A DNA stretch of 64,000 nucleotides from Candidatus Edwardsbacteria bacterium (lineage in GTDB: Bacteria; Edwardsbacteria; AC1; EtOH8): contig JAGVNJ010000050.1 in assembly GCA_020053305.1 (NCBI GenBank), positions 368 through 64,367 on the forward strand, given 5' to 3'. Position numbers and translations under genes: made by a program. This document shows, in pieces, positions 4,725 to 46,343 of the stretch (position 1 is its first letter; each line of letters starts with the position of its first letter). The notes under the pieces were generated by a model that ran no database searches, was not told the DNA's origin, and saw nothing but the letters and a program-made list of their open reading frames with translations.

Positions 4725-4739
4725 GCGCTTTGAGCCAAG

Positions 4740-4767
4740 GCATCCCGGATATCCGGGATGCCTTTTT
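4740..4767 (+). terminator. Rho-independent terminator after the sugar-nucleotide operon
   Basis: Perfect hairpin GCATCCCGGA-TA-TCCGGGATGC followed by TTTTTGTT, immediately 3' of the dehydrogenase stop codon. Confidence 0.8.
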
Positions 4768-4781
4768 GTTGAATAATTTAC

Positions 4782-4810
4782 TTGACAAAAAACGGTTTTT
4801 GGGATACAAT
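4782..4810 (+). promoter_or_regulatory. Consensus sigma-70-type promoter (TTGACA-N17-TACAAT) for the wza-wzz operon
   Basis: Exact -35 TTGACA and -10 TACAAT hexamers with a 17-nt spacer. Lies about 225 nt upstream of the wza ATG and right after the terminator. Confidence 0.7.
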
Positions 4811-5033
4811 CAGGTAAAGTTTAACAGTATGAGGGGAAACAAGTTGCTGTATTAAAGTTTGTGGTCCGGTCAATCAATTATAGTCGTGCTTTTCTGTTGT
4901 TCTATTTGATTGCTCTTTGCCGCAAGTTTTAATATGGCGCCCATAGAGTATTCCCAAATTAGTAATTAATTTGGCCGGGCGTCTATAGAAGCGTTCCGGC
5001 CATTTTATTATGCATTAACATAACGGAGGCAGA

Positions 5034-5951
5034 ATGTTATACAAGACAAAATTTATCATGGCTGTATTTCTGGCCGTGTTTGCCGGGGTGTCGGTTGCTC
5101 AGCAGAGGACCGATGGCAGGGATCTATATCAGCTGCGAAGCCAGCCGATGATGAAGATCCAGGTCCTGGGCCAGGTCCGCAATCCGGGCATACATTCACT
5201 GCCGGTGATGGATCGGGCCTCTTCGGCCCTGTCCGCGGCCGGCGGCACCAATGAACAGGGATCTCCCCGCAGTATCCAGCTTATCCGGCAGGGCCGGGTG
5301 GTGGACACCCTGGACATGTACCATTACCTCTATCAGAATCAGCAGTCCGAGAACCCGATTCTGGAGGACGGTGATGTACTGTTCGTTCCGGTGAACAGTA
5401 ACAACGTCAAAGTGGCGGGGCAGGTGTTCCGCCCCGGGATATTCGAGATAAAACCGGGCGAAAGGCTTTTGGACATCATCGAAATGGCCGGAGGCATCAC
5501 CCCGGTGGCCACCAAGGAGGAGATCAAGATCGAGAACGTGGCCACGCCGGACGTGGTGCAGAGCATCAGCTACCGGAGGCTGTTCATAGACGGCGACCAG
5601 AACCTGAATATCCTGTTAAAAGAAGGCGACGTGGTGACAGTGCCCACCGCACCCACCTCGGTGACGGTGGTGGGCCAGGTCCAGAAGGGCGGCACCTTTG
5701 TTTTCGAACCGGGCACGGTTTTAAGCTACTATCTGGGGATGGCCGGCGGCTACGGCGAGCGGGCCAGCACCGGCAACATCAAGATCAACCGCTGGGGCGG
5801 AAAAAGCCTGAAGGCCAGGGAGGATACCCCCATCGAACCCGGCGACGTGGTCATCGTGGGGGAGATGCAGATAAAGGGCTGGCGGGATTACATATCCATC
5901 ACCGGACAGTTGATGACCATGTTCTATATCGTCTGGACGGTTGCCAATTGA
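5034..5951 (+). CDS. wza: Polysaccharide export protein (Wza/KpsD-like, Poly_export + SLBB domains)
   Basis: Signal peptide (MAVFLAVFAGVSVAQQ). Poly_export-like NPGIHSLP region. Repeated SLBB-like GDVLFVP / GDVVTVP / GDVVIVG blocks. Confidence 0.8.
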   Translation: MLYKTKFIMAVFLAVFAGVSVAQQRTDGRDLYQLRSQPMMKIQVLGQVRNPGIHSLPVMDRASSALSAAGGTNEQGSPRSIQLIRQGRVVDTLDMYHYLYQNQQSENPILEDGDVLFVPVNSNNVKVAGQVFRPGIFEIKPGERLLDIIEMAGGITPVATKEEIKIENVATPDVVQSISYRRLFIDGDQNLNILLKEGDVVTVPTAPTSVTVVGQVQKGGTFVFEPGTVLSYYLGMAGGYGERASTGNIKINRWGGKSLKAREDTPIEPGDVVIVGEMQIKGWRDYISITGQLMTMFYIVWTVAN

Positions 5952-6013
5952 GCCTTGCCACAGAGTCACGGAGACACAGAGGGAAAACAAAATTTTACGG
6001 AGTTCGATAGAAT

Positions 6014-7198
6014 ATGATCAATAGCTTTTATGACCTGCTTTATATCCTGGTCAAGAACCGCAAGACCATATTTTGGATCACTTTCGGCTTCACGGTGTTT
6101 GCATTGGTCTTAAGCCTGCTGATCCCCAAGAAATATAAAGCCACCGCCACATTGATGCCCCCGGCCAGCCAGAGCATGAGCCTGATGAGCCTGGCCTTCA
6201 AGGCCGGCATGCCGTCAGATCCCGAAGTGGGCGGGGTGGGCTTTATGCCGGGAATGGTAACGCCGTCGGACATCTTTGCCTTTATGCTTAAGAACGGCGC
6301 CATTACCGGCCGGGTGATAGATCAGTGCGGCCTGGTTAATCATTATAAAAAGGAAAGGCAATGGACCAAGGATCCCAGAAAAGCATTATATGATGTGAAT
6401 AAAAAATTAGATAAGGCCACTGCCATAAAAGTAACCGAGGAACGTTTTATAACGGTCACCATTGAGGACAAAAGCCCGGACAAGGCCGCAGAGATCGCCA
6501 ATTGCTATGGGGACGTGCTGAACAGCATCTACAGCCAACTCAATATGTCGCAAGGGCAGAGAGCTAGGGAGTTCATCGAGAACCGGGTGGCCCAGGAGGA
6601 GGTTTTGTTAAGGGAGATGGAGGACTCCCTGAGGGTGTTCCAGAAACGCTTCCGGACGGTATCCATCACCGAGGAGATGAAGGCCCTGATAGAGATGTCG
6701 GCCAAAATTGAGGCGGATATCATGACCAAAAGAATAGAGCTGGAGGCACTTAAGTCCTACAACACCAAGGATAATTCCCAGATAAAAGTATTAACCACCG
6801 AGATAGACAAGGCTGAACAGCAGTTGAACAACCTGATGGTGGGGGGGAAAGACAAAACGCTGTTCATCCCCTTTGCCAAGGCCCCGGATATAGGCACCGA
6901 GTTGACCCGCCGGATGCGCGCAGTGAGGATACACCAGGAGGTATATGCCCTGTTGGTGGAACAGCTGGAGCATGCCAAGATATTAGAGGCCAAGGATACT
7001 CCCAAGATCCAGTTTCTGGAGAGGGCCGCGCCGCCGTGGAAAAAGAGTTGGCCGAAGAGGAGCTTGATAACATTGATAGGATTGTTTTTAGGTTTTGCTG
7101 TAGGTGTTATTTTGATTTTATTTAAAGAATGGATTTTTAATCTAAAACAAAGCGAAGAATATTTAATAAAATACAAGCTTATTTCAAAATTGTTATAA
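6014..7198 (+). CDS. wzz: Polysaccharide chain-length determinant (Wzz/PCP family, no kinase domain)
   Basis: N-terminal TM plus LLIPKKYKATATL motif. Long coiled-coil periplasmic region. C-terminal TM. The last ~120 nt of the ORF are AT-rich island DNA. Confidence 0.7.
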   Translation: MINSFYDLLYILVKNRKTIFWITFGFTVFALVLSLLIPKKYKATATLMPPASQSMSLMSLAFKAGMPSDPEVGGVGFMPGMVTPSDIFAFMLKNGAITGRVIDQCGLVNHYKKERQWTKDPRKALYDVNKKLDKATAIKVTEERFITVTIEDKSPDKAAEIANCYGDVLNSIYSQLNMSQGQRAREFIENRVAQEEVLLREMEDSLRVFQKRFRTVSITEEMKALIEMSAKIEADIMTKRIELEALKSYNTKDNSQIKVLTTEIDKAEQQLNNLMVGGKDKTLFIPFAKAPDIGTELTRRMRAVRIHQEVYALLVEQLEHAKILEAKDTPKIQFLERAAPPWKKSWPKRSLITLIGLFLGFAVGVILILFKEWIFNLKQSEEYLIKYKLISKLL

Positions 7199-7221
7199 AC
7201 CAAACAGCGAAGAATATTATA

Positions 7222-8601
7222 ATGTTCAATAATACTTTAGATTTGAATATTTCACAGCTAAATAATTATATACTGAAAAACAAATTATATTTTGTTTTAT
7301 CTTTTATTATTGTTTTACTTGGGATAGCTATTCTGGTTTTTGTAGCCTTTGAGAAATGGATAAATTTAATAATTTGTTTAAGTGTATTGTTGATAATGCC
7401 AATAATTTGGCTGTGTTTAAAAGCGCCAGATTTCATTATTTTTTTTGGTCTTGTAATTCATTTTACTCCGATTGAGGTACATTCTGGTCACTATTTGATT
7501 TTGTTCTTAATGTTAATTATGTTCATAAAAAACATATTATTAGATAGAAAGATATTTAAGTTTGATATTATAGTGACGTTGTGGTTTTTATTAATTGTAT
7601 TATCACTCATGACTTTTCCAAAATGGAATTCAATTTACAACGGATTCCGGGGATCATTATATTTGTACGTTTTGCCGTTGTCCATATATATATTATTTAA
7701 CAATAATTATATATCAAAAAATGGGTGCATTAGGTTTTTAAAATTTTATTATCCTTTGTTATTGGTTTATATTATTTTACAGATTACATATGTTTATTTA
7801 GTTGGTGAAGCTTCGCAATCAAACTACGTTATGTCTTACCATAGCGGTTTTAATCTTGTTTGGGGGCGTTCAAACTATACAGCTGCGGTACTAGCCTATT
7901 TGTCGATTATAGTATTTTCAACCAGGCGTTATTGGGTATCTTCATATGTAAACAAAATAATTATTTTCAGTTCATTATTTATTGCTTTAATAGGAATAAT
8001 TGCAATTATATCCAGGGGTACAATATTAGCACTATTTGCTGGCCTCATATCAATTTTAATAATTTATAGAAAACACATTATCAAATCTTGGTACTGGATA
8101 ATCGGAATTTCAACAATTAGCTTAATCGGGGGCTGGCTCGTGGTTGATTTTATAATCAAGACAATAGAACGTTTCAAATATATGAAGTTTGATTTATCTT
8201 TCTTAACCAGACTATATATGTATAAAGATTTATTAACTGTTTTGAAAAATAATATATTTATTGGTGTTGGGCCTGAACAATATAGATATACAGATTTTTA
8301 TTCTTATCAAAACGATCCGCATAATATATTTTTAAGCTATGGTATACCTTTTGGGATAGGCGGAATTATATTAATTTCACTGATATTAATAATGCCTTTT
8401 GCTAAATTATATAAAACCCGTAAAAGTCAAGCCCAAAACCTTCCGATTCTATTTTTTTTACCAGCGTTTATGACTGCAGTTGTACATAGCCTAGTTGAAC
8501 CAACTATAACGGCTTTTGGATACGGCATGCTTTTTTGGACTATGTATGCCTTAATGTTTAGGTACATAAAAGTACCAAATGAGCTGATTGGTTTGGCGTA
8601 A
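7222..8601 (+). CDS. O-antigen polymerase / O-antigen-ligase-family polytopic membrane protein (Wzy-like)
   Basis: About 11 predicted TM segments. Low-complexity hydrophobic protein with a larger loop near the C-terminal third. AT-rich codon usage. Confidence 0.55.
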   Translation: MFNNTLDLNISQLNNYILKNKLYFVLSFIIVLLGIAILVFVAFEKWINLIICLSVLLIMPIIWLCLKAPDFIIFFGLVIHFTPIEVHSGHYLILFLMLIMFIKNILLDRKIFKFDIIVTLWFLLIVLSLMTFPKWNSIYNGFRGSLYLYVLPLSIYILFNNNYISKNGCIRFLKFYYPLLLVYIILQITYVYLVGEASQSNYVMSYHSGFNLVWGRSNYTAAVLAYLSIIVFSTRRYWVSSYVNKIIIFSSLFIALIGIIAIISRGTILALFAGLISILIIYRKHIIKSWYWIIGISTISLIGGWLVVDFIIKTIERFKYMKFDLSFLTRLYMYKDLLTVLKNNIFIGVGPEQYRYTDFYSYQNDPHNIFLSYGIPFGIGGIILISLILIMPFAKLYKTRKSQAQNLPILFFLPAFMTAVVHSLVEPTITAFGYGMLFWTMYALMFRYIKVPNELIGLA

Positions 8602-8646
8602 TACATGCATTACGCCAAAATATAGTAGCAGAATAAAGCTTATAGA

Positions 8647-9906
8647 ATGTCTCACAAAAAAATTATAATCGAAAACTTGGCTTCTTTATTGGTTTTGCAA
8701 GGTGTAAATTATTTATTACCTTTAATTACTTTACCGTATCTTGTAAGAATTCTGGGAGCAGAAAAATATGGCCTGCTTTCTTTTGCCTTTGCCTTTGTAC
8801 AATACTTTGTGGTTTTTGTAGATTATGGATTTAATCTTTCAGCCACTCGACAGATATCGATATATCGAGATGACTCTCGAAAAGTATCAGAAATATTTTC
8901 TTCAGTAATGGTTATAAAAACCATATTGACAGCTATTAGCTGTCTGCTGTTTTGTTTATTAATAGCGGTTATCCCTAAATTCAGAAATGATTGGCTGATA
9001 TACTTGGCAAGTTTTATAGCTGTAATTGGGAATTTATTGTACCCGGTATGGTTCTATCAGGGTATGGAAAAAATGAAATATATTGCCGTAGTGAACTCTG
9101 TTGCTAAAATACTAATTACGTTAACAATATTTATTTTTGTAAAAAAACAATCGGATTTAATAGTGGCTGTTTTAATACAAAGTGCTGGAACGGTTTTTGC
9201 GGGTATTTTAGGAATATTGTTTGTAAAAGAAATATGCAGTTTGATCTATATTAAACCAACCCTAAAATCATTGAAAATTACATTGGATGAGGGGTGGCCC
9301 ATTTTTGTATCTTTAATGTCTGTTAACTTGTTTACTAATACAAATATATTTATTCTCGGAATATTTACCAATAACCAAACAGTAGGATATTTTTCGATAG
9401 GTTATAAAATTGTTTCAGTTATACACAATCTGGTTAATCCAATATCCAGCGCAATATTTCCAAGAGTAAGTACTCTTTTTCAGGAATCTAAAGAGGAAGC
9501 TCTAAGATTTTTAAGGAAAATCATGATACTGGGCAGCATTGTATTTGTTCTATTATCATTACTATTGTTTTTTGGGGCTGATATCGCAGTAAGAGTAATA
9601 ACGGGGCAATATATTAGTAAAATTAGTATATTAATACGGATTATGTCCTTGCTGCCAATTTTAACTTTTATTGATAATATTTATGGTACGCAAATAATGT
9701 TAAACAACAATATGAGTAAAATATTTATGCGCGCGTTAGTTATAGGTGGCATTTTTTCGATTGTTTCGGCGTTGTTATTAGTCCCCATAATGGATTCGTA
9801 TGGTGCCGCAATTGTATTGTTGCTTTCTGAAATAGTCGTTCTCTCGTTAATGTATTTCCCTGTAAAAAGAAAAAATATTATGCTGTTTTCCTTAAAATAT
9901 GAATAA
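8647..9906 (+). CDS. wzx: Oligosaccharide flippase (Wzx, MOP superfamily), AT-rich copy
   Basis: 12-TM pattern. N-terminal block LQGVNYLLPLITLPYLVRILGAEKYG...DYGFNLSATRQIS is typical of polysaccharide-biosynthesis flippases and is paralogous to the ORF at 17123. Confidence 0.8.
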   Translation: MSHKKIIIENLASLLVLQGVNYLLPLITLPYLVRILGAEKYGLLSFAFAFVQYFVVFVDYGFNLSATRQISIYRDDSRKVSEIFSSVMVIKTILTAISCLLFCLLIAVIPKFRNDWLIYLASFIAVIGNLLYPVWFYQGMEKMKYIAVVNSVAKILITLTIFIFVKKQSDLIVAVLIQSAGTVFAGILGILFVKEICSLIYIKPTLKSLKITLDEGWPIFVSLMSVNLFTNTNIFILGIFTNNQTVGYFSIGYKIVSVIHNLVNPISSAIFPRVSTLFQESKEEALRFLRKIMILGSIVFVLLSLLLFFGADIAVRVITGQYISKISILIRIMSLLPILTFIDNIYGTQIMLNNNMSKIFMRALVIGGIFSIVSALLLVPIMDSYGAAIVLLLSEIVVLSLMYFPVKRKNIMLFSLKYE

Positions 9907-10909
9907 GGTAATTATAATTATAATTAATTATAATAGAAGTAAAATAACAATAGAATGCCTTGAAAGTTTATTTCTTTTGACTTATAAACACTATCAAATA
10001 GTAGTGGTCGATAATAATTCACAAGATGCCTCTGTAAAAGAATTGAATGCTTGGTTGTATAATAAATATGATGAAAGTGAAAGGCGCAACGATAATCATG
10101 ATTATGGAATTAAGAATATACGATTGTATTATAATATAATTAAAGGAAAGAAAATATATAACAAGTCGGTTACGTTAATAGTGAACAAGAATAACTTTGG
10201 CTTTGCGGCAGGAAACAACATCGGGATTAGATATTATGCAAATAAATATGATTACGTTTGGCTTTTAAACAACGATACGATTGCAGAAAAGGATTCCTTG
10301 CTGCGGCTTTTAAATAAAATGCGTGAAGCACCTTATTTGGGAATATGTGGCTCAAAAATAATTAATTATTATACTGGCAAAATACAATCCATTGGTACAA
10401 AATTAAATAAATATACGGGCTTACTTGAAATCATTAATGACGAGAATAAAGTTAATAAGATTGATAGCATACAGGGCGCATCCTATTTCATTAGTAAAGA
10501 GTGTATTCAAAGCATGGGGCTTTTACCGGAGGAATATTTTTTATATTTCGAAGAATCCGACTACTGTTTAAATGCATTACAAAATGGTTTTTCTACAGGT
10601 GTGGCACTTGATTCAATAATATACCATAAAGAAGGAATTACCACAGGGGGGAGTACCAATTATAGAAAAAGAAATCTATTTATTGATGTATTGTGCCTGA
10701 GAAATCGTTTAATATTTGCAGACAAATATTTAAAAATAAAAATTTTTATGTATTCTGGCATGATTTGCTCTGCAATTATCCGTTTGCTAAGAGGTCAGCC
10801 AAAAGTATTTTTGATAATAATTAAATTTGTTTTTGTTGCTGGAAAAGGTATCGACCAGCTAAAGCAATCTTTTCCTATAGAAAAAATTAAAAATATGGTA
10901 AATAGTTAA
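9899..10909 (+). CDS. Glycosyltransferase family 2
   Basis: GT2 N-terminus IIIINYNRS...VVVDNNSQD and a DxD region. AT-rich. Confidence 0.8.
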   Translation: MNKVIIIIINYNRSKITIECLESLFLLTYKHYQIVVVDNNSQDASVKELNAWLYNKYDESERRNDNHDYGIKNIRLYYNIIKGKKIYNKSVTLIVNKNNFGFAAGNNIGIRYYANKYDYVWLLNNDTIAEKDSLLRLLNKMREAPYLGICGSKIINYYTGKIQSIGTKLNKYTGLLEIINDENKVNKIDSIQGASYFISKECIQSMGLLPEEYFLYFEESDYCLNALQNGFSTGVALDSIIYHKEGITTGGSTNYRKRNLFIDVLCLRNRLIFADKYLKIKIFMYSGMICSAIIRLLRGQPKVFLIIIKFVFVAGKGIDQLKQSFPIEKIKNMVNS

Positions 10910-10922
10910 AATACAGCCACCT

Positions 10923-12050
10923 ATGGGAAAAAATATTATTGCCTTAAATGGTACAATAATTAGCCCGCAAAGAAGTGATGGCTTTGGCAGGGTCACATAT
11001 GAAATTATCAAAATGGTTAAGTCTAAATATAGTGATGCACTGGTTTATACAAATAAGCAAAATGCACCATTATTTAAATTAAATAATGGTGTTGATATAA
11101 TTAATACAAAAATAAAATATTCGGAAAGCAATTTTACCGGGCATGTCTCTCGTTTTTTATGGCACCAGACAGTGTTGCCGATATCTTTAATAAATAATAA
11201 TATTAATTTATATTTTTCGCCGATCCCGGATGGAATGTTATTCCCCCCTTGTAAACAAATTATTACAATCTATGATTTGTTGCCAATACTATATCCACAA
11301 TCAAGTCCTAGAATTAAATATTATTATAAATATATCCTTCCTAAAATTATAAATTCTTCTTCGGCATTGATCACGGGTTCCGAATCAACAAAAGCGGATG
11401 TGTTAAGCTATTATAAAGATATTCCTTGCCCGATCTATGTTGTTTACCCGGGATATAAAAACGATATGTTTTTTAGGAGATCGCAACAGGAAATTAATAA
11501 TGTTAATGATAAATATAAACTGGATAAATATATAATAACTGTTGGGGAAATTAGACCCTACAAAAACATTAGACGTTTAGTGTCTGCTTTCACAAATATA
11601 AATAACAATCAACATGACCTTGTTATAGTTGGCAAGAAAAGCAGGTTGGAAAAAGATATTGAACAAATGCCAATAGATTTACATGTTAAAAAAAGAATTA
11701 AATATTTAGGCTATGTTTCGGATGTCGAATTGGCTTCTCTTTATTCTGGCGCGCAGATGATGGTTCATCCGTCACTATATGAAGGCTTTGGTTTACCTCC
11801 GTTGGAGGCTATGGCATGTGGATGCCCCGTAATAGTATCTAATTCTTCTTCTATACCAGAGGTGTGTGGAGATGCTGGATGTTATTTTGACCCTTATGAT
11901 GTAGATAACATAATTGATGCCATAAATGAGGTTTTAGGAAATAAATCGCTTCAAAAGGACTTGGCTCTAAAAGGTGTGGAGCGTGCAAAATATTTTAGTT
12001 ATGATAAGATGGTTGCCCAGTTAGTAAATATTTTTAATAGACTATCATAA
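10923..12050 (+). CDS. Glycosyltransferase family 4 (GT-B)
   Basis: C-terminal [21 protein letters not shown] signature of GT4 retaining glycosyltransferases. AT-rich. Confidence 0.85.
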
Positions 12051-12395
12051 AAATTAGAATCCGATTGCCGGGCGCTAAGCCAATTTACTGTCCTTACGGA
12101 GTAGAATTATATTTGGCCGAAAATACGCAAAATCCATGGCTTGGCTTGTATACCGGCCTTCTGGTTTCTGTGATTTTACGGATCAAACGGGGGCAAATTC
12201 AGAGAGCAGTCAAGTTTCTGGACATCATGACGAAATCCATTTTTAAACCGGATGACTTTATAAAAATCAACGGAATTGATTAGTTTCTGGGCAATTCACT
12301 GAATTCATGTCGATAGTTGAAATTCATTGTGGTTTTAATATTCTATAAACATAGATAGATATAAAACGGACGCGCCTATTTCATTTTTAAGGTCT

Positions 12396-13484
12396 ATGCC
12401 ACAACCTCCTGCTCACAATATCATCTTTGATGCCCGGATGTACCATCATTCCGGGATCGGCTCATATATCCGCAACCTGGTAGGGCAGTACGTCCAACAG
12501 GGCATTAGCCGTGATATGGTTCTCCTGGGAGACAGGGATATCCCCGACCACGGCCTGAAAACCAGGCATTGTCACTACAAAATCTACGGCTTGGCCGAGC
12601 AGACAATTTTGCCCTTTTCCGTCAGGGCAGCCAGCCTGTTCCATGCCCCGCATTACAACGCTCCGGTGCTTTTCCCGGGGAAATTAGTGGTCACCATCCA
12701 TGATCTGATTCATCTTAACTTTTACAACCAGTTGCCTACGATGCTTCACAAATTGTACGCCAAGATCATGATGGGTATAGTGGTCAACCGGGCTGATGCC
12801 ATTATGACCGACTCGGACTGGACCAGAAACGATATTTTGCGGAGATGGCCCCAGGCGGAATCGAAGATAAAAACGGTTTACTGTGGCGTGTCCGAACCAA
12901 TAGAGCATCCCAGCCCTAAAACTGTGCTGGACAGATACGGTGTTAACAAGCCGTATATCCTTTATCTGGGATTATTGAAAAGGCATAAGAATATAATTCG
13001 GTTGGTAAAATCATTTGAGACTGCCCAAAGATCTTTAAAAGGGAAATATCAACTGGTCATTGCCGGGGATGCCAAAAGCGATGATACGGGTTTGAAGCAG
13101 TATGTTGATGGCTGTGCCGCCAAACATTTGATCCGCCTGACAGGTTTCGTCCCCGGTGCCGATCTGCCGGCCTTGTACGGCCAGGCGGCAGTATTTGCTT
13201 TTCCTTCGACAGCCGAGGGTTTTGGTCTTCCACCGTTAGAAGCCATGTCCTACGGTGTTCCTGTGATATCCAGTAATGCCACCTGTCTGCCTGAGATCTT
13301 GAAGGATGCCCCGCTGTATTTCGATCCGTTCAATACCGATGATATGGCAGCCTGCCTGGAAAGGGCGGTCCGGAACGAAAGCTGGCGGCGCCAGGCCGTT
13401 GAAAAGGGAAGATCGGTGGCGGCCGGCTACCGATGGGAAAATACCGCCCGGGAGTGTCTTGACGTTTACCGGTCGCTTATCTGA
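12396..13484 (+). CDS. Glycosyltransferase family 4
   Basis: [22 protein letters not shown]4 signature. High-GC codon usage resumes here. Confidence 0.85.
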   Translation: MPQPPAHNIIFDARMYHHSGIGSYIRNLVGQYVQQGISRDMVLLGDRDIPDHGLKTRHCHYKIYGLAEQTILPFSVRAASLFHAPHYNAPVLFPGKLVVTIHDLIHLNFYNQLPTMLHKLYAKIMMGIVVNRADAIMTDSDWTRNDILRRWPQAESKIKTVYCGVSEPIEHPSPKTVLDRYGVNKPYILYLGLLKRHKNIIRLVKSFETAQRSLKGKYQLVIAGDAKSDDTGLKQYVDGCAAKHLIRLTGFVPGADLPALYGQAAVFAFPSTAEGFGLPPLEAMSYGVPVISSNATCLPEILKDAPLYFDPFNTDDMAACLERAVRNESWRRQAVEKGRSVAAGYRWENTARECLDVYRSLI

Positions 13485-13547
13485 GGAATCGTTTGGTGGG
13501 GGCTTGTTATTCTGACCAGCAAACATGGATGGAGAAAAGGAACGAAC

Positions 13548-14654
13548 GTGATGCCCGAAAAGCAACATAAGGTCGCCATTATACACGACTGGCTGACAGG
13601 GATGCGGGGCGGGGAGAAAGTGTTGGAATCGCTGTTGGATATTTATCCCGATTCAGATATCTTCACCTTGATTTGGTTAAAGGGAAGCGTCTCTGACAAG
13701 ATAGAGAAACAGAGGATCACCACATCCTTTTTGCATAAGGCACCTTTTATAAGGAACAATTACCGCAATTATCTACCATTATTCCCGATGGCGATAGAAA
13801 GCTTTGATCTTGCCGGCTACGACCTGATCATTTCCTCCAGCCATTGTGTGGCCAAAGGAGTTATTCCCCAGCCGGGAGCACGGCATATCTGCTATTGTTA
13901 TACGCCAATGCGTTATATCTGGGATATGTACTTTCAGTATTTTGGTAAACCTCGAAATCGGCTGGCCGGATTCATATACGGATCAGTTGCCAATTACCTG
14001 CGCATGTGGGATGTCACTGCCAGCAGCCGGGTGGATGAATTTATCGCCATCAGCAACCATGTGTCCCAGCGGATCAGGAGATATTACGGCAGGGCATCAA
14101 CGGTCATCTTCCCTCCGGTTGATAACGAATTTTACAGGCCTGTTTCCGATAAGCCTTTGGCTGAGCCTTATTATTTAGTTGTTTCCGGTCTGGTGCCGTA
14201 TAAAAGAATCGACCTGGCAATCGAGGCCTTTAATCAAACTGGAAAAAAATTGATCATAATAGGGGAAGGACCAGAAAAAAACAGGCTGATAAAAATGGCT
14301 AAAGGCAACATTTCATTTTTGGGCTGGGCCAGCAACCAGGACCTGCGGAAATGGTACAGCCATTGCGAAGCGCTGATCTTTCCCGGTGAGGAGGATTTTG
14401 GTATTGTGCCGGTGGAGGCTCAGGCCTGCGGCCGTCCGGTCGTTGCCTTTGGAAGAGGCGGAGCACTTGATACGATTATTCATGGAAGCACCGGCATTAT
14501 CTTTCCTGAACAAACTGCGGCCAGCTTGATTGAAGCTTTAGATACTCATGAAGCAACCAAATATAATACTAATACAATAATAGAAAATAGCCATCGGTTT
14601 TCCAAGAACGTTTTTATCGGTAAAATCCGCCAATATATTATGCAAAATTGCTAA
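13548..14654 (+). CDS. Glycosyltransferase family 4
   Basis: EDFGIVPVEAQACGRPVVAFGRGG GT4 signature. Confidence 0.85.
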   Translation: MMPEKQHKVAIIHDWLTGMRGGEKVLESLLDIYPDSDIFTLIWLKGSVSDKIEKQRITTSFLHKAPFIRNNYRNYLPLFPMAIESFDLAGYDLIISSSHCVAKGVIPQPGARHICYCYTPMRYIWDMYFQYFGKPRNRLAGFIYGSVANYLRMWDVTASSRVDEFIAISNHVSQRIRRYYGRASTVIFPPVDNEFYRPVSDKPLAEPYYLVVSGLVPYKRIDLAIEAFNQTGKKLIIIGEGPEKNRLIKMAKGNISFLGWASNQDLRKWYSHCEALIFPGEEDFGIVPVEAQACGRPVVAFGRGGALDTIIHGSTGIIFPEQTAASLIEALDTHEATKYNTNTIIENSHRFSKNVFIGKIRQYIMQNC

Positions 14655-14717
14655 ATATTAGATGAATTTCATTCATAATTATACCGGAATCAACCGTATG
14701 GAGCATAGGATTATAAA

Positions 14718-16133
14718 ATGAACCGCAGATGGCAGCTGACATATTCCGGGATAATCATGGCGGCCGATGTATTGGTCATCGCGCTGGCATTTATACTTTC
14801 ATTCTGGCTGCGGTTTGATTCCCATCTGTTGCCCATTCCCCTGGGCCGTCCGCCATTCCAGCCTTATTTGGTAGGCTCCTTGGTGGTGGCCTTTTTATGG
14901 GTCAGCATCTTCTGGCTGCTGGGCCTGTACGAAAACCGCAGCCGGTTCGCTCCCGACGAGGAGATCTACCGGGTGGCCAAGGGCACCTTTGTGGGTATTG
15001 TGGCCATCATGGCCTTTTCCTTTTTCTACCGGGAGGTGGTCTGGTCCCGGCTGGTGCTGGCCATGGCTTCGGTGTTATCATTCTTCCTGCTTTCGGCCCA
15101 GCGGATCGTGGCGGTGAGCCTTTTTAAGAGGATAGTAGCCAAGCATGGCGTCGGGCTAAGAAGGACCGCCATCATCGGCAGCGGGGATATCGCCCTGAAG
15201 ATCATCGAGCAATTGAAATTCAATCCCGAGTACGGCTATGGGATAGAATGCCTGATCTCGGCCAACGGCGTAGATGAACCGGCCTTCAGCGAGACATCCG
15301 TCAAAAAACTGGAGATCAAAAAGTACAGCGAGATCTCCCGGCTGATAGATGAATACCGGCTGGATGCCCTGTTCATAGTCCTGCCCCACGACATGCAGTC
15401 CGCTGTCATCGAGATCGTCAACTCCACCGAACACCGCCCGGTGGAATTGAAATTCGTTCCCGATCTGATGGATATGATCGGCCGGGACACCAGCATCTCC
15501 CAGCTGGGCAATATCCCGGTCATAGGCCTGCGGGAGCTGCCCCTGACCGAGTGGGACCTGATCAACAAAAGGATCTTCGACCTGACCGCCTCCACCCTGG
15601 GCCTGATCGTCCTTTCGCCGCTGTACCTGCTGCTGGCTGGGCTTATTAAATTCACTTCGCCGGGGCCGGTATTCTATGCCCAGGAGCGGGTGGGGTATGA
15701 CGGAGAGCCGTTCAATATGCTGAAATTCCGCTCCATGCGGATGGGGGCCGAGGAGAAGACCGGGCCGGTGTGGACCAAACAGAACGATGACCGCCGGACC
15801 CCGCTGGGCACTTTCCTGCGCAAATACAGCCTGGACGAGCTTCCCCAGCTTTTCAATGTCATTAGAGGGGATATGAGCCTGGTGGGGCCCCGGCCGGAAC
15901 GGCCGTTCTTTGTGGAAAAATTCAAGGACCAGATCCCCCGCTATGCCTCCCGGCACAGGATGAAATCCGGCGTCACCGGCTGGGCCCAGGTCAACGGCTG
16001 GAGGGGGGATACCTCGATCGTGGAGCGCACCAAATGCGATATCTTCTATATCGAGAACTGGTCGCTGTTCCTGGACATCAAGATACTGATCCGGACCGTG
16101 CTGCAGGTGATATTCCCCCGGAATGCCTATTGA
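14718..16133 (+). CDS. Undecaprenyl-phosphate sugar phosphotransferase, large polytopic (WbaP/exopolysaccharide priming PGT)
   Basis: Four to five N-terminal TM segments, followed by a CoA-binding-like region. C-terminal bacterial sugar-transferase core (KFRSM, DELPQLFNVIRGDMSLVGPRPE). Confidence 0.85.
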   Translation: MNRRWQLTYSGIIMAADVLVIALAFILSFWLRFDSHLLPIPLGRPPFQPYLVGSLVVAFLWVSIFWLLGLYENRSRFAPDEEIYRVAKGTFVGIVAIMAFSFFYREVVWSRLVLAMASVLSFFLLSAQRIVAVSLFKRIVAKHGVGLRRTAIIGSGDIALKIIEQLKFNPEYGYGIECLISANGVDEPAFSETSVKKLEIKKYSEISRLIDEYRLDALFIVLPHDMQSAVIEIVNSTEHRPVELKFVPDLMDMIGRDTSISQLGNIPVIGLRELPLTEWDLINKRIFDLTASTLGLIVLSPLYLLLAGLIKFTSPGPVFYAQERVGYDGEPFNMLKFRSMRMGAEEKTGPVWTKQNDDRRTPLGTFLRKYSLDELPQLFNVIRGDMSLVGPRPERPFFVEKFKDQIPRYASRHRMKSGVTGWAQVNGWRGDTSIVERTKCDIFYIENWSLFLDIKILIRTVLQVIFPRNAY

Positions 16134-16260: not shown

Positions 16261-17079
16261 ATGTCCGAACAAGATAACGAAATGGCAACATTGTGGCGAA
16301 TTATTAAACCGCACTGGCTGTTAATCATCACATGCGGGATCATTCTATCAGCTATCGGCTTGTTCAGTCAGATGGCTTCACCCAAGGTTTTCCAAGGTGA
16401 AGTCCTGATTGCGCTACCCAAAGTTCCGGGAGCCAACCCGGACAACGAGGACACTACGTTTGTCAGCGTTCCCGAAACCAGGGCGGTAATCACCCAGCTT
16501 CAGAACCGGCTCCGACAAGGCGATGAGACTGACTTGAAATCGGATTCCCTTTTAAAGAAGCTTCATCTTGTCAGAATCGATGATATCCGAGGCTCAGGCA
16601 ACTACTTCAAGATGACAATCCGATCGCAAAGCGAACCACAGGCGGTCTTGGCCACTCTGGATCGCTTGGTAAGCTATTTGAATAATAGCCAGTTTCTAAT
16701 GAGTGGGTACGAACTTAAAAGAAGTGAAATGGAGGCCGGGTTCCAGGATGTTGCCCTGGCCATGGAAAGGGCCACCAAGCTTAAGGAGGTGGGTGATAGG
16801 TTGGTCAGGCAAAGGGCCAATGTGGGGTTCAATCCGGTAGAATTGGAAACCAAAATGAACGAATTGCAGGGAAGGTACCTCCGCCTTAAGACACAGTTAT
16901 CGCTGGTTCACAACTATCGGTATGTTGATCCCCCCTATGTTCGGAATAGTCCGATAAGCCCAAGGCCTTGGAGGACCTTTTTCCTTTACGGGTTCTTGGG
17001 CCTGATTCTAGGGCTAATGTTGACGATGCTTGCCCATTTTATCAGGACGGCTGTCTTGGGGCGGCAGGGTGAAAAATAA
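16261..17079 (+). CDS. Membrane protein with Wzz-like topology (second chain-length-determinant-like protein)
   Basis: TM near each terminus with a coiled-coil-rich central region. No catalytic motifs. Confidence 0.35.
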   Translation: MSEQDNEMATLWRIIKPHWLLIITCGIILSAIGLFSQMASPKVFQGEVLIALPKVPGANPDNEDTTFVSVPETRAVITQLQNRLRQGDETDLKSDSLLKKLHLVRIDDIRGSGNYFKMTIRSQSEPQAVLATLDRLVSYLNNSQFLMSGYELKRSEMEAGFQDVALAMERATKLKEVGDRLVRQRANVGFNPVELETKMNELQGRYLRLKTQLSLVHNYRYVDPPYVRNSPISPRPWRTFFLYGFLGLILGLMLTMLAHFIRTAVLGRQGEK

Positions 17080-17122
17080 ACCCCGGAAACTTGGGGCTGA
17101 AAATAAGCTGATGAGTGTCTGA

Positions 17123-18418
17123 ATGTATAGATTTAATATTAATCATTTATCCGCAAATTCTAAAAGGCTGGCTAGTAATTTCTTGTCTTTGTCCGTGCTG
17201 CAGGGAATGAATTATTTATTTCCGATAATAACTGCACCATATTTGATCAGGGTCATCGGCATCCAGAAATACGGGCTGTGGGCCACGGCCTCGGTGCTGC
17301 TGACCTATTTCCAGATGCTGACCGACTACGGCTTCAACCTCTCGGCCACCAAGGAAATATCCGTAAACCGCCACGACCTCAAAAAGACCTCGGAGATATT
17401 CAGCTCAGTGATGACTATCAAGAGCGGCTTATTCCTGGCCAGCATCATCCTGATGCTGGCTCTGACCTACAGCGTGCCCCTGTTTAAGGCTGATCACGTC
17501 TTCTATTTGGTGACCTTTTCCGGCCTGCTGGGCCACGTCCTGTTCCCCATCTGGTATTTTCAGGGTATAGAGCGGATGAAGTACATCACCTACCTCAACC
17601 TGGCCTCCCGGACGGCGGTGTTCATCCTGCTCTTCATCGTCATCCGGCAGGAGGGCGACTACCTAAAGTATGCGGCCCTCAACTCCGGCGCGTTGATCCT
17701 GACCGGGGCGTTAAGCCTTTGGGTCGTCCTCAATGACTTCGGGGTCAGGTACGTTATTCCCAGGGCCTCAAGCCTGAGGGCGAGCCTGGCAGAGGGCTGG
17801 CATATTTTCGTCTCCACCTTCAGCGTCAACCTCTACATGAACACCAACGTCCTGATTTTGCGGTTTTTCGCCAGCGAGGCGGCGGTGGGATATTATTATG
17901 TGGCCGACCGTTGCATTACGGCCTTAAGAAGTCTGGCCAGCATCATATTTCAGGCGATCTACCCCCATGTTTGCGCCCGGGCCGGGGAATCAAAGGAGCA
18001 GTTCAACCGGTTCTTCCGGAGGGCCTCGCTGCCCATCTTCGGGCTGTTCCTCATCGCCTGCACGGGCCTGTTTCTGCTGGCTGGTCCGGTGGTTTTCTTT
18101 TTCACCGGAAAACAGGCGGCGGAGGCTGTTACGGCCTTAAGGGTCCTGGGCTTCGTGCCGTTGGTGGTGGCGCTGAACATCCCGGCCTATCAGACCCTGC
18201 TGGCCTACGGCCTGAAGAAAAGCTACACCGCTGTCTTGGTATCGGGCTCGGCGCTCAATCTCGGCCTGAATTTCCTGCTGGCCCCCAAATATTACGGCGC
18301 CGGCACGGCCCTGGCGGTGCTGTTGACCGAGGCCTACATAACCCTGGGGCTTTACCTGATGATAGAGCTGAAGCATAAGGAACATTCACTATTGAGAACG
18401 GCGGAAGACAAGCCATGA
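17123..18418 (+). CDS. wzx: Oligosaccharide flippase (Wzx), GC-rich resident copy
   Basis: Same N-terminal signature block as 8647..9906 (LQGMNYLFPIITAPYLIRVIGIQKYG...DYGFNLSATKEIS). Multi-TM. Confidence 0.8.
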   Translation: MYRFNINHLSANSKRLASNFLSLSVLQGMNYLFPIITAPYLIRVIGIQKYGLWATASVLLTYFQMLTDYGFNLSATKEISVNRHDLKKTSEIFSSVMTIKSGLFLASIILMLALTYSVPLFKADHVFYLVTFSGLLGHVLFPIWYFQGIERMKYITYLNLASRTAVFILLFIVIRQEGDYLKYAALNSGALILTGALSLWVVLNDFGVRYVIPRASSLRASLAEGWHIFVSTFSVNLYMNTNVLILRFFASEAAVGYYYVADRCITALRSLASIIFQAIYPHVCARAGESKEQFNRFFRRASLPIFGLFLIACTGLFLLAGPVVFFFTGKQAAEAVTALRVLGFVPLVVALNIPAYQTLLAYGLKKSYTAVLVSGSALNLGLNFLLAPKYYGAGTALAVLLTEAYITLGLYLMIELKHKEHSLLRTAEDKP

Positions 18419-19116
18419 ACGACCGTACACAAAAATTCTACAACGCCAAGGACCGGGCCTATTACGCCCACGCCCGGACCGACATCACGGCAATGGTACA
18501 GGGGCGGGACTTAAAGGTGCTGGATGTCGGCTGCGGCCAGGGCGCCACCCTGCTTGAGTTGAAAAGATCGGGACAGGCCGCGGTGGTGGTGGGGGTGGAG
18601 ATCAATCCCGAGGCCGCCAGGGAGGCCGGGTACCTTTTGGACTGGGTGATCGTCGGGGACATAGAGAACCTGGATCTGAACTATCCCAACGGCTATTTCG
18701 ACCTGATAATCCTGTCGGACGTGCTAGAGCACCTGGTGGACCCTTGGAGTACTTTGAAGAAACTGAAAAAATATCTGGCCCATGAAGGCAGGGTGATCGC
18801 CAGCCTTCCCAACCTCAGGGAATTCGGGACAATTCGCCGGCTACTATTCCAAGGGGACTTCAAATATTCCCAGGCCGGGATAATGGATAAAACCCATCTG
18901 AGATTTTTCTGCAAAAAGAACATGGTGGAGCTTTTTCAGGACGGCTTCGAGATCACCGAGATCAAAACAGTCCCGGAGCTTTTAAGGGGCGAGGTGGCCC
19001 TGTTCAACCGGTTGACCTTCAGGATATTCGAGGAGTTTCTGGTCATCCAGTACATCATTGAAGCCCGGAACAAGATCATCCCCGGACAAGCGCCCGAAGG
19101 GGGCAGGAATGGCTGA
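18415..19116 (+). CDS. Class I SAM-dependent methyltransferase
   Basis: Motif I VLDVGCGQG and downstream acidic motif II (LIILSDVLEHL). Confidence 0.8.
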   Translation: MNDRTQKFYNAKDRAYYAHARTDITAMVQGRDLKVLDVGCGQGATLLELKRSGQAAVVVGVEINPEAAREAGYLLDWVIVGDIENLDLNYPNGYFDLIILSDVLEHLVDPWSTLKKLKKYLAHEGRVIASLPNLREFGTIRRLLFQGDFKYSQAGIMDKTHLRFFCKKNMVELFQDGFEITEIKTVPELLRGEVALFNRLTFRIFEEFLVIQYIIEARNKIIPGQAPEGGRNG

Positions 19117-19996
19117 CCGTCCGCTGGTCTACATCATCGTCCTGAACTACAACGGATGCCGGGACACCGAGGAATGCCTGGAGAGCCTGGAAGGGGTTTC
19201 CTACGGCAACTTCCGGGTGGTTGTGGTCGACAATTGCTCGGACGACGGCTCGGAAGCGGAGATCAAAGCCAAATATCCCGGGCATACTTTCATCCAGACC
19301 GGAAAGAACCTGGGATACGCCGGAGGTAACAATAAGGGGATTGGGTTGGCCCTGGAGAACCAGGCCGACTATATCTGTCTGCTGAATAACGACACCACCG
19401 TGATCCCGGATTTTTTGGAGCCTTTGGTAAATTTACTGGAGCAGGATAAGGCCGTCGGCATCGCCGGCCCCAAGGTCTGCGACTATTACGACCAGGAAAT
19501 CATCCAGGCCACCGGATCCAAGGCCGACCTGTTCCTGGGAAAATTCTACCAGCTCAACCGAGGCAAGAAAAAAGACCAGGTCCAGGGTGTGCTGGAGGTG
19601 GACTATGTGGCCGGGGCCTGCCTGCTGATCCGGAGCGGACTGATATCAAAGATCGGGCTGGTCCCGGAGGAATATTTCCTGTTCTTTGAGGAGACCGAGT
19701 GGTGTTTGAAGGCCAAACGGGCCGGGCAGAGGGTGGTCTGCGTCTGCGAAAGCCTGATCCACCACAAGGGGTCCAAGTCCACCGAGAAGGTCAGCGGGAT
19801 CCAGGAATATTACATGACTCGGAACCAGATCATTTTCGAAATTAGAAACGCCAGCGAAATCCAGTGGGTGGTTTTCTATTTATACCGGTTGTTCCAGATA
19901 GCCTTAAGCCTGGCCAAGGGCATTTTCACAGGTCGTTTTAACCGCGACATGCTGAAGGGATTCAGGGACGGCATGAGGTACCGCAGGGATGGATGA
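19109..19996 (+). CDS. Glycosyltransferase family 2
   Basis: YIIVLNYNG...VVVDNCSDDGS GT2 motifs. Start placed at the internal ATG that overlaps the methyltransferase stop. Confidence 0.8.
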   Translation: MADRPLVYIIVLNYNGCRDTEECLESLEGVSYGNFRVVVVDNCSDDGSEAEIKAKYPGHTFIQTGKNLGYAGGNNKGIGLALENQADYICLLNNDTTVIPDFLEPLVNLLEQDKAVGIAGPKVCDYYDQEIIQATGSKADLFLGKFYQLNRGKKKDQVQGVLEVDYVAGACLLIRSGLISKIGLVPEEYFLFFEETEWCLKAKRAGQRVVCVCESLIHHKGSKSTEKVSGIQEYYMTRNQIIFEIRNASEIQWVVFYLYRLFQIALSLAKGIFTGRFNRDMLKGFRDGMRYRRDG

Positions 19997-20906
19997 TAGG
20001 ATCAAAAATGCCAGGGAAGCGGCCAAGCCGGGGACCGGCCTTCCGGAAGGGACCGTCAGGGGACTGGTCAGTATCATAATCCCCACCCATAATTCAGAGG
20101 ACTACGTCTGCCAGGCGGTGGATTCCTGCCTCAGCCAGACCTACCGCCTGGTAGAGATAATAGTGGTGGACGACGGCTCCACCGACGGCACCAGGCAAAG
20201 GTTGAAAAGTTACGCCGACCGGGGGGAGATAATATACATATATCAGGAGAACGGGGAGCGCTCCCGGGCCCGTAACCGGGGGCTGAACCAGGCCCGGGGA
20301 GAGTTCATCCAGTTTCTGGACGATGACGACCTGCTGGAAAAGGAAAAACTGGAGAAGCAGGCCGCTTTCCTGAAAGAGAATCCCGGCTGCTTCGGGGTCT
20401 ATTGCGCCGCCTCCCATTTCGGGGAGGTGGAGGAAAAATTCCGGAGATATCCCCGGCCCCATGCCGGGGTGATCACCAGGGACATCATCCGGGGCAATTT
20501 CATCCTGATCAACACCATGCTGACCCGGAGGGCGGAGGTCAGATTCGACGAAAACTTTCGCACCCTGGAGGACTGGTACTATTGGTTCCAGATCAGCCTG
20601 GGGAGGAGGAAATTCGGATACATTGCTGAAAAGCTTTGCCGGGTCCGGAGGCATGTCGGGAACACATCGAAGGATGGGCTGGCCATGCTCCGGGGGGAGC
20701 TGGCGGTCCTGGACAAAATGGAGTCTGCCGGTGTTTTTTCAAGCGAGGTCAGGTATTACCGCTTCGAGCGGATGTACCTTTTGGGGATGAAAGGAAGCTG
20801 GCGGACAATGGGTAAGGCGGCAGCCATGGACGGCAGAAAGATATTTGCCTGCCTGGGGTTCCTGACCAAGACGGCCGCCAGAAAGATTTTAATCCGGAAA
20901 CAGTGA
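19989..20906 (+). CDS. Glycosyltransferase family 2
   Basis: SIIIPTHNSEDYV...VVDDGSTDGT GT2 motifs, followed by a DDDD region. Confidence 0.8.
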   Translation: MDDRIKNAREAAKPGTGLPEGTVRGLVSIIIPTHNSEDYVCQAVDSCLSQTYRLVEIIVVDDGSTDGTRQRLKSYADRGEIIYIYQENGERSRARNRGLNQARGEFIQFLDDDDLLEKEKLEKQAAFLKENPGCFGVYCAASHFGEVEEKFRRYPRPHAGVITRDIIRGNFILINTMLTRRAEVRFDENFRTLEDWYYWFQISLGRRKFGYIAEKLCRVRRHVGNTSKDGLAMLRGELAVLDKMESAGVFSSEVRYYRFERMYLLGMKGSWRTMGKAAAMDGRKIFACLGFLTKTAARKILIRKQ

Positions 20907-21011
20907 CTGCCAGATCCATGGCTGGCTGACACCCAAAATATCGGGAAGGCAAGCCGGCATGAAAAAACAATTGACGGGGAGAGGGATATTGTCGGAAACA
21001 AGGGGCAGGGG

Positions 21012-21875
21012 ATGAACATCACCGCGGTAGTGGTCCTGTACCAACTCCGGCCGGATCAGTCGCCCACCATCGCCACCCTAGCCCGCTCCTATCAGCGCAT
21101 AAGGGGAAGCGGGGCGGGAGTGTATCTGATCATTTTCGACAACAGCCCAAAACCGCAACAGGTGGACATCCCGCTGCCGTTCGAGCACCGGTATGTCCAT
21201 GACGCCACAAACGGTGGCCTGGCCCAAGCCTACAACTTCGCTCTGGACTCGGACCCCGGCAGCGCCAGCCAATGGCTGCTGCTTTTGGATCAGGACTCAA
21301 CGCTCCCCGATGATTTCCTGGAAGAGGTTTTTAAGGCCCTGGCCCTGATCGGGCAGGATGACTTGGTGGCGGCGGCGGTCCCCAAGGTCCTCCAGCACGG
21401 CCGTCCGATATCGCCGGCCCTGGTCAAAGGCGGCCGGATCAGACCGATCCCAAAACCCATCACGGGAGTCTGCCCGTTCCCGGTCACGGCCATAAATGCA
21501 GGCACCTTGATACGGAAAAATTTCCTGTACGCGATCGGAGGTTTCAACCGACAATTTAAACTGGATTACCTAGATCACTGGCTTTTCGCTGAGATCAAGC
21601 GGCGAGGGAAAAAAGTGTATATCACAGGGGCTGTCAGCAACCACGATCTATCGATAGGAAACACTAATCACCCGGTGTCAGCCGAACGCTATTTATCCAT
21701 CCTTAAGGCTGAGACCCTTTTCTACATGGCCTACAGTGATGGCGGCAATTATTTATGCCACCTATTCAACTTGGCTTTTAGGGCTGGACGACAATACTTG
21801 CTAGGGCAAGCGGAGTTTTCCCGATTGACCGTAAGGCATTTTCTCGGCACAATAAATAACCGATGGAATTCATGA
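21012..21875 (+). CDS. Glycosyltransferase family 2-like (rhamnosyltransferase-type)
   Basis: N-terminal AVVVLYQ...IFDNSP and LLLDQDS (DxDD-like) resemble GT2. Weaker match than the neighbours. Confidence 0.5.
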   Translation: MNITAVVVLYQLRPDQSPTIATLARSYQRIRGSGAGVYLIIFDNSPKPQQVDIPLPFEHRYVHDATNGGLAQAYNFALDSDPGSASQWLLLLDQDSTLPDDFLEEVFKALALIGQDDLVAAAVPKVLQHGRPISPALVKGGRIRPIPKPITGVCPFPVTAINAGTLIRKNFLYAIGGFNRQFKLDYLDHWLFAEIKRRGKKVYITGAVSNHDLSIGNTNHPVSAERYLSILKAETLFYMAYSDGGNYLCHLFNLAFRAGRQYLLGQAEFSRLTVRHFLGTINNRWNS

Positions 21876-24117: not shown

Positions 24118-24139
24118 AACCATTAATTAATGGATTTTA

Positions 24140-27176: not shown

Positions 27177-27215
27177 GTGTAAATCATTGACTTTGCAGTC
27201 AACAATAGGTGGACA

Positions 27216-27770: not shown

Positions 27771-27782
27771 TAATGAATCTGG

Positions 27783-29614: not shown

Positions 29615-29645
29615 CAGATATTCCAACCGGTCCCGGAGGGAAAGT

Positions 29646-30794: not shown

Positions 30795-30805
30795 AAGGCG
30801 CTTAA

Positions 30806-44591: not shown

Positions 44592-44613
44592 ATTTCAAAT
44601 TGAGGGAGACGCT

Positions 44614-46308: not shown

Positions 46309-46343
46309 TAATCACCACATCAAAACTTTAAATAAGACATGAC

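Follow-up and report, generated by a model that had tools for sequence, protein, structure and literature searches.

A probable serotype-exchange region with its left boundary inside wzz in a surface-polysaccharide locus of Candidatus Edwardsbacteria

A 64-kb stretch of DNA from Candidatus Edwardsbacteria (contig JAGVNJ010000050.1; the whole stretch is called the window here) contains a Wzx/Wzy-dependent surface-polysaccharide locus interrupted by about 5 kb of AT-rich DNA, which begins inside wzz, the gene of the polysaccharide co-polymerase. Is this block a one-off splice of foreign DNA, as the first-pass annotation had it, or one allele of a region that varies throughout the lineage? Comparison with related loci argues for the latter. 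The segment 7064-12395 is very probably the hypervariable, serotype-determining centre of the locus in a genome of ~55% guanine + cytosine (GC), and its present content would have arrived by replacement with a segment like that of the relative L001.

The comparison covered 11 distinct loci, that of the window together with L001/L023, L004, L007-L011, L013, L021 and L022, from Candidatus Edwardsbacteria, TA06 and UBP2. By source name, the Wzz homologues at 84-91% identity belong to Candidatus Edwardsbacteria and the more distant ones to TA06 or UBP2. A genome scan with the Wzz alignment added two useful loci only, and a 43-residue "representative" of the Wzz cluster (P0210) was dismissed as unrelated noise.

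The features on which the argument turns are listed below in window coordinates (TM1 and TM2, first and second transmembrane helices; GC3, GC content at third codon positions; GT2 and GT4, glycosyltransferase types; aa, amino acids; nt, nucleotides; ORF, open reading frame).

6014-7198, + strand: co-polymerase gene of Wzz/GNVR type, apparently mosaic, 394 aa (Pfam Wzz 6.5e-10, GNVR 1.5e-9)
6014-7036, + strand: native backbone-type part of wzz, with TM1, the periplasmic domain and most of the proline-rich motif (86-90% DNA identity to six relatives, GC3 0.70)
7037-7063, + strand: putative left crossover interval, in the PPWKKSWPKRS codons (informative sites, 45-nt windows, blastn ends)
7064-7198, + strand: putatively cassette-borne end of wzz, TM2 and cytoplasmic tail (GC 0.21; 90.5% DNA identity to L001)
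7222-8601, + strand: wzy, repeat-unit polymerase (Pfam Wzy_C 1.1e-15; 58 bits, cut-off 31.7)
8647-9906, + strand: wzx, flippase (Pfam Polysacc_synt 7.5e-57)
9899-10909, + strand: GT2 glycosyltransferase (Pfam Glycos_transf_2 8.3e-20)
10923-12050, + strand: GT4 glycosyltransferase (Pfam Glycos_transf_1 1e-36)
12047-12088, + strand: probable 5' remnant, ~14 codons without the start codon, of the glycosyltransferase gene that comes next in the donor type (alignment to L001)
12078-12089, + strand: putative right junction of the last exchange, the short common stretch GCCAATTTAC (blastn limits, three-way alignment)
12079-12283, + strand: probable 3' remnant of a resident GT2 gene (alignment to L010; no Pfam match)
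12065-12283, + strand: orphan ORF of 72 codons, holding parts of both remnants (no Pfam match)
12284-12395, + strand: intergenic spacer common to L010, reaching the lineage-wide right edge (unbroken L010 alignment; change point 12391)

The cargo wzy-wzx-GT2-GT4, named already in the first-pass annotation, agrees with the matches to Wzy_C, Polysacc_synt, Glycos_transf_2 and Glycos_transf_1. By Pfam, a Wzy-type polymerase, a Wzx-type flippase and an initiating phosphoglycosyl transferase are all present in the locus.

A variable region with a fixed left edge

The gene order common to the relatives is sugar genes, export gene, wzz, wzy, wzx, varying transferases and modifying enzymes, and Bac_transf, the position of the last being counted only where the fetched stretch of a relative extends to it. 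In relatives with genomes of 50-55% GC, the GC content falls to 27-35% for 5-8 kb from the 3' end of wzz onwards. Of eight loci in which the change point was measured (the window and seven relatives), seven have it 15-24 nt past the first KKSWPK codon and L009 has it 54 nt past; the distance in L013 is 61 nt, and for L021 and L022 the drop at the wzz 3' end is read from a 500-nt profile only. L014 (Candidatus Edwardsbacteria Prado126, 65-70% GC) has a wzz homologue at 57% identity with no GC drop after it, so the pool of AT-rich cassettes seems confined to the clade of 50-55% GC.

The proteins show the same edge. In an alignment of 15 Wzz sequences, conservation extends to KKSWPK(R/K) and is lost entirely in the final ~45 residues. 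Among 51 Wzz homologues the median identity of the tail is ~30%, independent of identity elsewhere, and pairs whose N-terminal parts are at least 90% identical have the tail in common in only 11% of cases. Gene tables, blastn and identity matrices likewise revealed different gene sets between conserved flanks at one site. Because different AT-rich cassettes start at one wzz motif in 11 loci, the block is best understood as a region that is polymorphic throughout the lineage and whose left edge is fixed, not as a singular insertion, and the idea of a one-off splice is abandoned.

The composition step

A two-segment maximum-likelihood scan placed the left GC change point at 7064 (2-log support 7055-7081; log-likelihood gain 71), where GC content falls from 0.51 to 0.28, and the right one at 12391 (support 12361-12451), where it rises from 0.34 to 0.51; a 300-nt GC profile is consistent with both. 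The abrupt fall at ~7080 and return at ~12390 reported in the first-pass annotation are close to these values. Across the window, the 5-kb GC minimum is 0.306 (start 7001), and 5-kb windows outside the cassette have a GC content of at least 0.484 (mean 0.546, standard deviation 0.031). The sliding-window and codon checks suggested at that stage therefore found a sharp step and a composition that is not uniform across the window.

GC3 is 0.70-0.77 in the left-flank genes and the N-terminal part of wzz (first 1050 nt), 0.20 in the final 135 nt of wzz (7064-7198; GC 0.21) and 0.27-0.28 in wzy, wzx, GT2 and GT4 of the cassette. To the right of these, the orphan ORF has a GC3 of 0.47, the two GT4 genes of the flank have 0.51-0.59 and the initiating transferase gene has 0.78. 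The amino-acid composition of membrane proteins was considered as the cause of the low GC and rejected on these GC3 values and two controls: within one and the same wzz, TM1 has a GC3 of 0.71 versus 0.18 for TM2, and the second wzx of the window (17123-18418) has a GC3 of 0.76.

Reversal of affinity within wzz

Hydropathy analysis places the hydrophobic helices of the window Wzz at residues ~18-38 and ~350-372. These two peaks, the Wzz and GNVR domains and the alignment to its best solved relative, Wzc of E. coli K30 (7NHR; residues 121-382, TM2 included), place the protein in the polysaccharide co-polymerase (PCP) family. A proline-rich motif followed by GxxxG is present at the start of TM2 (APPWKKSWPKRSLITLIGLFLG), and the proline-rich part and all that precedes it are conserved in all Wzz homologues aligned. 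No C-terminal tyrosine kinase domain (PCP-2a) was found in Wzz by Pfam, the protein stopping 23 residues past TM2, and no cognate tyrosine kinase gene (PCP-2b) was found among the ORFs scanned across the window.

The composition switch falls 135 nt before the wzz stop codon, at residue 351, which is the first residue of the C-terminal hydrophobic helix and comes just after PPWKKSWPKRS. At this point the affinities of the gene are reversed. The N-terminal part (6014-7036) has 86-90% DNA identity to L004, L007, L008, L009, L010 and L011, and 77% to L001; in ungapped comparison the tail (7064-7198) has 90.5% identity to L001 and 45-52% to the other relatives. The reversal was located at 7019-7108 with 45-nt windows, and informative sites, read by eye from alignment A3, show L007/L010-type bases giving way to L001-type bases between 7036 and 7042. 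By blastn, the six relatives are 86-91% identical as far as 7056-7120 and have no detectable similarity thereafter; L001, whose flanks are only ~77% identical, aligned unbroken from 4770 to 12088. The left junction lies within a 25-nt stretch that is conserved between cassette types, and the wzz reading frame is intact across it, with a normal TM2 encoded. Judged by these alignments, wzz is a recombinant mosaic with its C-terminal helix encoded by cassette DNA, as had been proposed from the base composition with a switch ~120 nt before the stop codon.

The right junction and the orphan ORF

The similarity to L001 stops at 12088 and that to L010 starts at 12079 (blastn), and the ~10-12 nt that the window has in common with either relative at this join correspond to the stretch listed above. 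Window 12047-12088 aligns with the beginning (~42 nt) of the third transferase gene in L001 (16022-17143), from which, as read from the alignment, it differs by a start codon changed from ATG to ATA and a 1-nt indel. On the other side, window 12079-12500 has 91% DNA identity to L010 16811-17227, running from the GT2 remnant into the right flank. The counterpart of the GT2 remnant is L010 16811-17014 (~204 nt), the end of an intact 308-aa GT2 gene; a 1-nt indel separates the two, and the final ~50 residues are colinear.

Since its 5' end matches the third transferase of L001 and its 3' end the GT2 of L010, the orphan ORF is a chimeric recombination scar in which two gene stumps are fused. It had been suspected from the start to be a remnant of displaced sequence, and the 91% DNA identity to the 3' end of the L010 GT2 gene agrees with this. 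In annotation, the 72-codon ORF is best treated as a scar and not as a gene.

Similarity resumes at 12079 for L010, 12415 for L011, 12426 for L009 and 14715 for L008 (blastn). These limits indicate that the last exchange ended at 12078-12089 rather than at 12390, and that 12390 is the older right edge of the variable region in the group of the window, L009, L010 and L011. Of the cassette limits first given (7080-12390), the left one is retained, and the right one is replaced, as the end of the last exchange, by the join seen in blastn and the three-way alignment.

History of the cassette and the question of a donor

Along the cassette, protein identity to L001 is 82% for Wzy (28-38% to other relatives), 77% for Wzx (44-49% to others), 62% for GT2 and 66% for GT4. 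The synonymous difference (pS) between the window and L001 is 0.79 in the N-terminal part of wzz and 0.56-0.79 in the flanks, then only 0.22 in the wzz tail and 0.34 in wzy, and again 0.60 in wzx and 0.60-0.70 over wzx, GT2 and GT4. Codon bias was rejected as the cause of the low pS of wzy and the tail, because wzx, GT2 and GT4 are equally biased yet near saturation. By this course of values, sharing of the tail and wzy with L001 is more recent than the split of the two genomes, and the history of the cassette is composite.

The best surviving alternative is a recent import from a distant low-GC phylum, Bacteroidota- or Bacillota-like for example, with the cassette not yet drifted to the composition of its host. 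It would account for a GC3 of 0.27 in the cassette against 0.75 in host genes, and atypical GC is the classical argument that O-antigen genes are foreign (PMC3715488). The expected low-GC donor lineage was, however, not recovered through the cassette proteins. A protein homology search with GT4 found no low-GC donor phylum: after the window protein itself, L001 was the nearest match (66%), followed by one of 55% on an unexamined contig and several of ~49%, and named other phyla reached only 37-47%. The closest homologues of the cassette thus belong to the lineage itself. A homology search with Wzy returned Wzy alone, low-complexity words having made it so insensitive that the L001 Wzy at 82% was missed, and a metagenome scan with Wzy gave the L001 organism again and nothing else. 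Moreover, the wzz end carried by the cassette is lineage-specific and continues an Edwardsbacteria-type wzz in frame, and every related locus of 50-55% GC holds a different AT-rich cassette. The window and L001 cassettes are saturated at synonymous sites in wzx, GT2 and GT4 and both are still ~30% GC, so the low GC is a long-lived property of the lineage pool. These data do not support a recent import, and we regard it as improbable.

Assembly chimera, divergence in place and mobile elements

A metagenome assembler might also have joined two strains or organisms at a common sequence. The exact combination seen in the window is present on one contig only, and the 25-nt conserved stretch at the left junction makes a strain switch in the assembly graph conceivable there. 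The right junction is a different matter, having only ~10-12 nt in common with either relative. An overlap of 10-12 nt is too short for an assembly-graph join. The remnants at this junction are decayed (a lost start codon and two 1-nt indels), as expected of a real and not very recent event, and at the other end the preserved wzz frame and the normal TM2 speak against an artificial join. The same passage from wzz into AT-rich DNA is found in every related locus recovered, from different samples, and four data sets, one of them with a contig of 2.68 Mb, contain the L001 type in identical form. A chimeric assembly is therefore very unlikely.

Divergence in place, in which the tail and the downstream genes evolve fast under AT-biased change without any replacement, has in its favour that many substitutions can be accommodated in transmembrane helices and in short cytoplasmic tails, and that tail identity is low in most Wzz pairs. 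It does not explain why the step is abrupt (~30 nt) and affects third codon positions, why the tail and wzy of the window are nearer to the distant L001 than to near relatives, a reciprocal switch, or why gene content varies between loci; the truncated gene remnants, in addition, mark a physical join. We give this explanation hardly any weight.

Insertion of a mobile element or genomic island by an integrase, transposase or phage would suit a block of atypical composition with sharp edges, but it can be set aside as very improbable, since the left edge is an in-frame gene replacement with no insertion, the ORF list and Pfam show no integrase or transposase ORF in a block filled by four biosynthetic genes that leave no room for one, and the Rfam, tRNA and repeat scans were empty apart from chance matches of AT-rich sequence, with neither a tRNA nor terminal repeats, direct or inverted.

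The proposed exchange

The reading we prefer, replacement of the centre of the locus by an L001-like segment, can be set out as follows. The locus has a conserved left arm of nucleotide-sugar genes, the export protein and most of wzz, and a conserved right arm of two GT4 genes and the initiating transferase, between which related genomes hold different AT-rich gene sets. An ancestor with an L010-like centre would have exchanged ~5 kb of it for an L001-like segment that brought helix 2 and the tail of wzz, the genes wzy, wzx, GT2 and GT4 and, from a third glycosyltransferase gene, the first ~14 codons. Crossover at the left would have been homologous, within the proline-rich motif of wzz at 7037-7063, with the frame kept. 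At the right, the join at 12078-12089 would have been illegitimate or mediated by the short common stretch, cutting both the incoming gene and the resident GT2, and the fused remnants would now form the orphan ORF. The new polymerase, flippase and two transferases, working with the conserved initiating transferase, the flank GT4s, the co-polymerase and the exporter, would then build an altered repeat unit, and this would amount to a surface-antigen switch. It is the direction of the event, its one-anchor mechanism and the changed polysaccharide structure that we infer; the composition step, the gene identities, the diversity of alleles at a fixed boundary, the reciprocal reversal of affinity and the gene remnants are observed.

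Several observations weigh against this reading in its simplest form. The identity to L001 varies along the cassette, and a single event does not explain the whole pattern. The true parents are represented by the relatives L001 and L010, with 86-91% DNA identity for the tail and wzy and 91% for the remnant; the exact bases of the crossovers, and how long the stretch shared at the right junction is, are therefore approximate. A protein cluster look-up recorded the flank and cassette combination of the window on one contig only, of 64,566 bp, and exact look-ups with its Wzz and GT4 proteins returned no encoding contig. Finally, the strain comparison suggested in the first-pass annotation was answered in part: cassettes of related lineages were found at the site, but no same-species genomes (>95% identity) showing presence or absence of the cassette were found.

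Helix 2 of Wzz and the polymerase

The position of the left boundary raises the possibility that Wzz helix 2 plus tail and Wzy are a co-adapted unit that must be exchanged together, and that the proline-rich boundary maps a determinant of Wzy specificity. We put this forward tentatively, as less probable than the exchange itself. The tail and wzy are the youngest part common to the window and L001 (pS 0.22 and 0.34, versus 0.60-0.70). L007 and L008 are alike in wzx (81%) and not in wzy (33%) or the tail (33%). In the TA06-labelled L021 (13984-18532) and L022 (13984-17571), tail, wzy and wzx have 88-91% protein identity and the next transferase block is different, showing that recombination has another boundary inside the cassette, downstream of wzx. 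None of the loci compared combined a shared tail with an unrelated wzy. The travelling of the tail with wzy in these three comparisons (window-L001, L007-L008 and L021-L022) is equally what simple adjacency predicts. As a corollary, and one to be held just as loosely, selection, or a closed pool of AT-rich genes, could maintain the low GC of the cassettes in the lineage, and this low GC would not be a fresh foreign signature.

Whatever its cause, a fixed seam at the start of helix 2 provides natural domain-swap chimeras that could guide work on how a co-polymerase recognises its polymerase.

Flanking genes and other variable sites

The genes bordering the region are the following.

5034-5951, + strand: export-like protein with three SLBB domains (Pfam SLBB 1.4e-28), conserved left flank
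12396-13484 and 13548-14654, + strand: right-flank GT4 genes (Pfam Glycos_transf_1)
14718-16133, + strand: initiating phosphoglycosyl transferase (Pfam Bac_transf 7.9e-71)

The export-like protein (305 aa) has 80-94% protein identity among the relatives compared and no Pfam match to the Poly_export domain at E <= 0.01. The right flank from 12396 to 16133 has 80-91% DNA identity to L009, L010 and L011. Nucleotide-sugar genes lie upstream of the locus; downstream are a second Wzy-dependent gene set, then LptF/G and then a type IV pilus cluster.

Within the cassette, a near-perfect palindrome of 14+14 nt (TTTGGCGTAATACA/TGCATTACGCCAAA) was found at 8592-8619, exactly at the wzy stop codon and in the wzy-wzx spacer. 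It is a candidate hairpin that may act on read-through or transcript stability.

Two further sites near wzz differ between the loci. The first, another spot of presence or absence, lies between the UDP-glucose dehydrogenase and export genes (window 4725-5033) and is filled in L001 (7096-8757), L007 (7037-8749), L008 (7260-8759) and L010 (7130-8746) by one or two genes of 263-553 aa without Pfam match; these genes are missing from L004, L009, L011 and the window, where the 310-nt spacer has a GC content of 0.41-0.45. The second is a methyltransferase gene between the export gene and wzz, present in L009 (9032-9937) and L011 (9175-9975) and not in the window or other loci.

The second Wzx/Wzy-type gene set follows directly after the locus (16261-31400). 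It encodes a 272-aa Wzz-like protein, wzx, a methyltransferase, several GT2 and GT4 proteins, two Wzy_C proteins (21863-23110 and 25968-27176), a 184-aa Bac_transf protein, a PglF-like dehydratase, an aminotransferase and an acetyltransferase, and its GC content is close to that of the host, except at 26000-28000, where it dips to 0.45-0.46. Between lptF/lptG and the pilus genes, a 1879-aa ORF (38452-44091, + strand) matched no Pfam family at E <= 1e-5. The pilus region (44569-52746 and 55253-57018) contains three tandem PilB-like ATPase genes followed by PilT-like, PilC-like and PilS/sigma-54-type regulator genes. The GC content is lower (0.47) in a stretch there with two pilin-like genes, whose products have N-terminal methylation motifs; this is possibly another variable surface-structure region.

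Comparison with known systems

In homology-facilitated illegitimate recombination of naturally transformable bacteria, a homologous anchor at one end is combined with a very short stretch at the other, and genes are truncated on both sides. The present locus may be a case of this kind: the anchor in wzz is seen in the alignments, and the right join lies between two truncated genes with ~10-12 nt in common, the parents being represented by their relatives L001 and L010. The right join would resemble the product of such a one-anchor mechanism.

A parallel in composition is offered by the O-antigen loci of the galactose-initiated serogroups of Salmonella enterica, in which wzx, wzy and the glycosyltransferase genes have 28-37% GC in a genome of 51-52% (PMC3715488); the cassette here has 28-33% against ~55% for the genome. 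In both systems alleles are exchanged by recombination, the junctions lie in adjacent conserved genes, and GC content is graded near the edges (PMC3715488). In Salmonella, however, the junctions are in the adjacent rml genes and wzz lies outside the cluster, whereas the left boundary here is in the co-polymerase gene, at one fixed motif. A further difference is that the present organisms belong to an uncultured environmental candidate phylum. Switching by cassette exchange, including the long-puzzling low GC of wzx, wzy and transferase genes, appears to operate in such a phylum too, so that the pattern is not restricted to pathogens that face the immune system of a host. Its driver would probably be pressure from phages or predators.

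The K loci of Klebsiella pneumoniae and Acinetobacter also have conserved export and co-polymerase genes (wza-wzb-wzc) beside a central variable region, and in Klebsiella wzc and gnd, nearest the centre, recombine most and are thought to be homology arms (PMC5359410). Klebsiella Wzc has a tyrosine kinase domain after TM2 and the variable region begins past the whole gene; the co-polymerase here ends 23 residues past TM2, and TM2 is part of the swapped segment.

In the WzzE-WzyE complex, TM2 of Wzz is reported to face the membrane cavity holding Wzy, and the C-terminal helix appears to contact Wzy (PMC10030265). Swaps of TM2 between WzzB and WzzE (Shigella Wzz chimeras) disturb chain-length control (PMC10030265), and natural recombination would here have swapped exactly TM2 and the tail, together with wzy. 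This joint inheritance may be plain physical linkage, and the protein here is nearer in sequence to Wzc than to enterobacterial Wzz. Cassette exchange is a known and ordinary way of changing surface sugars; what is new here is the lineage, and what is unusual is the left seam at the last helix of Wzz.

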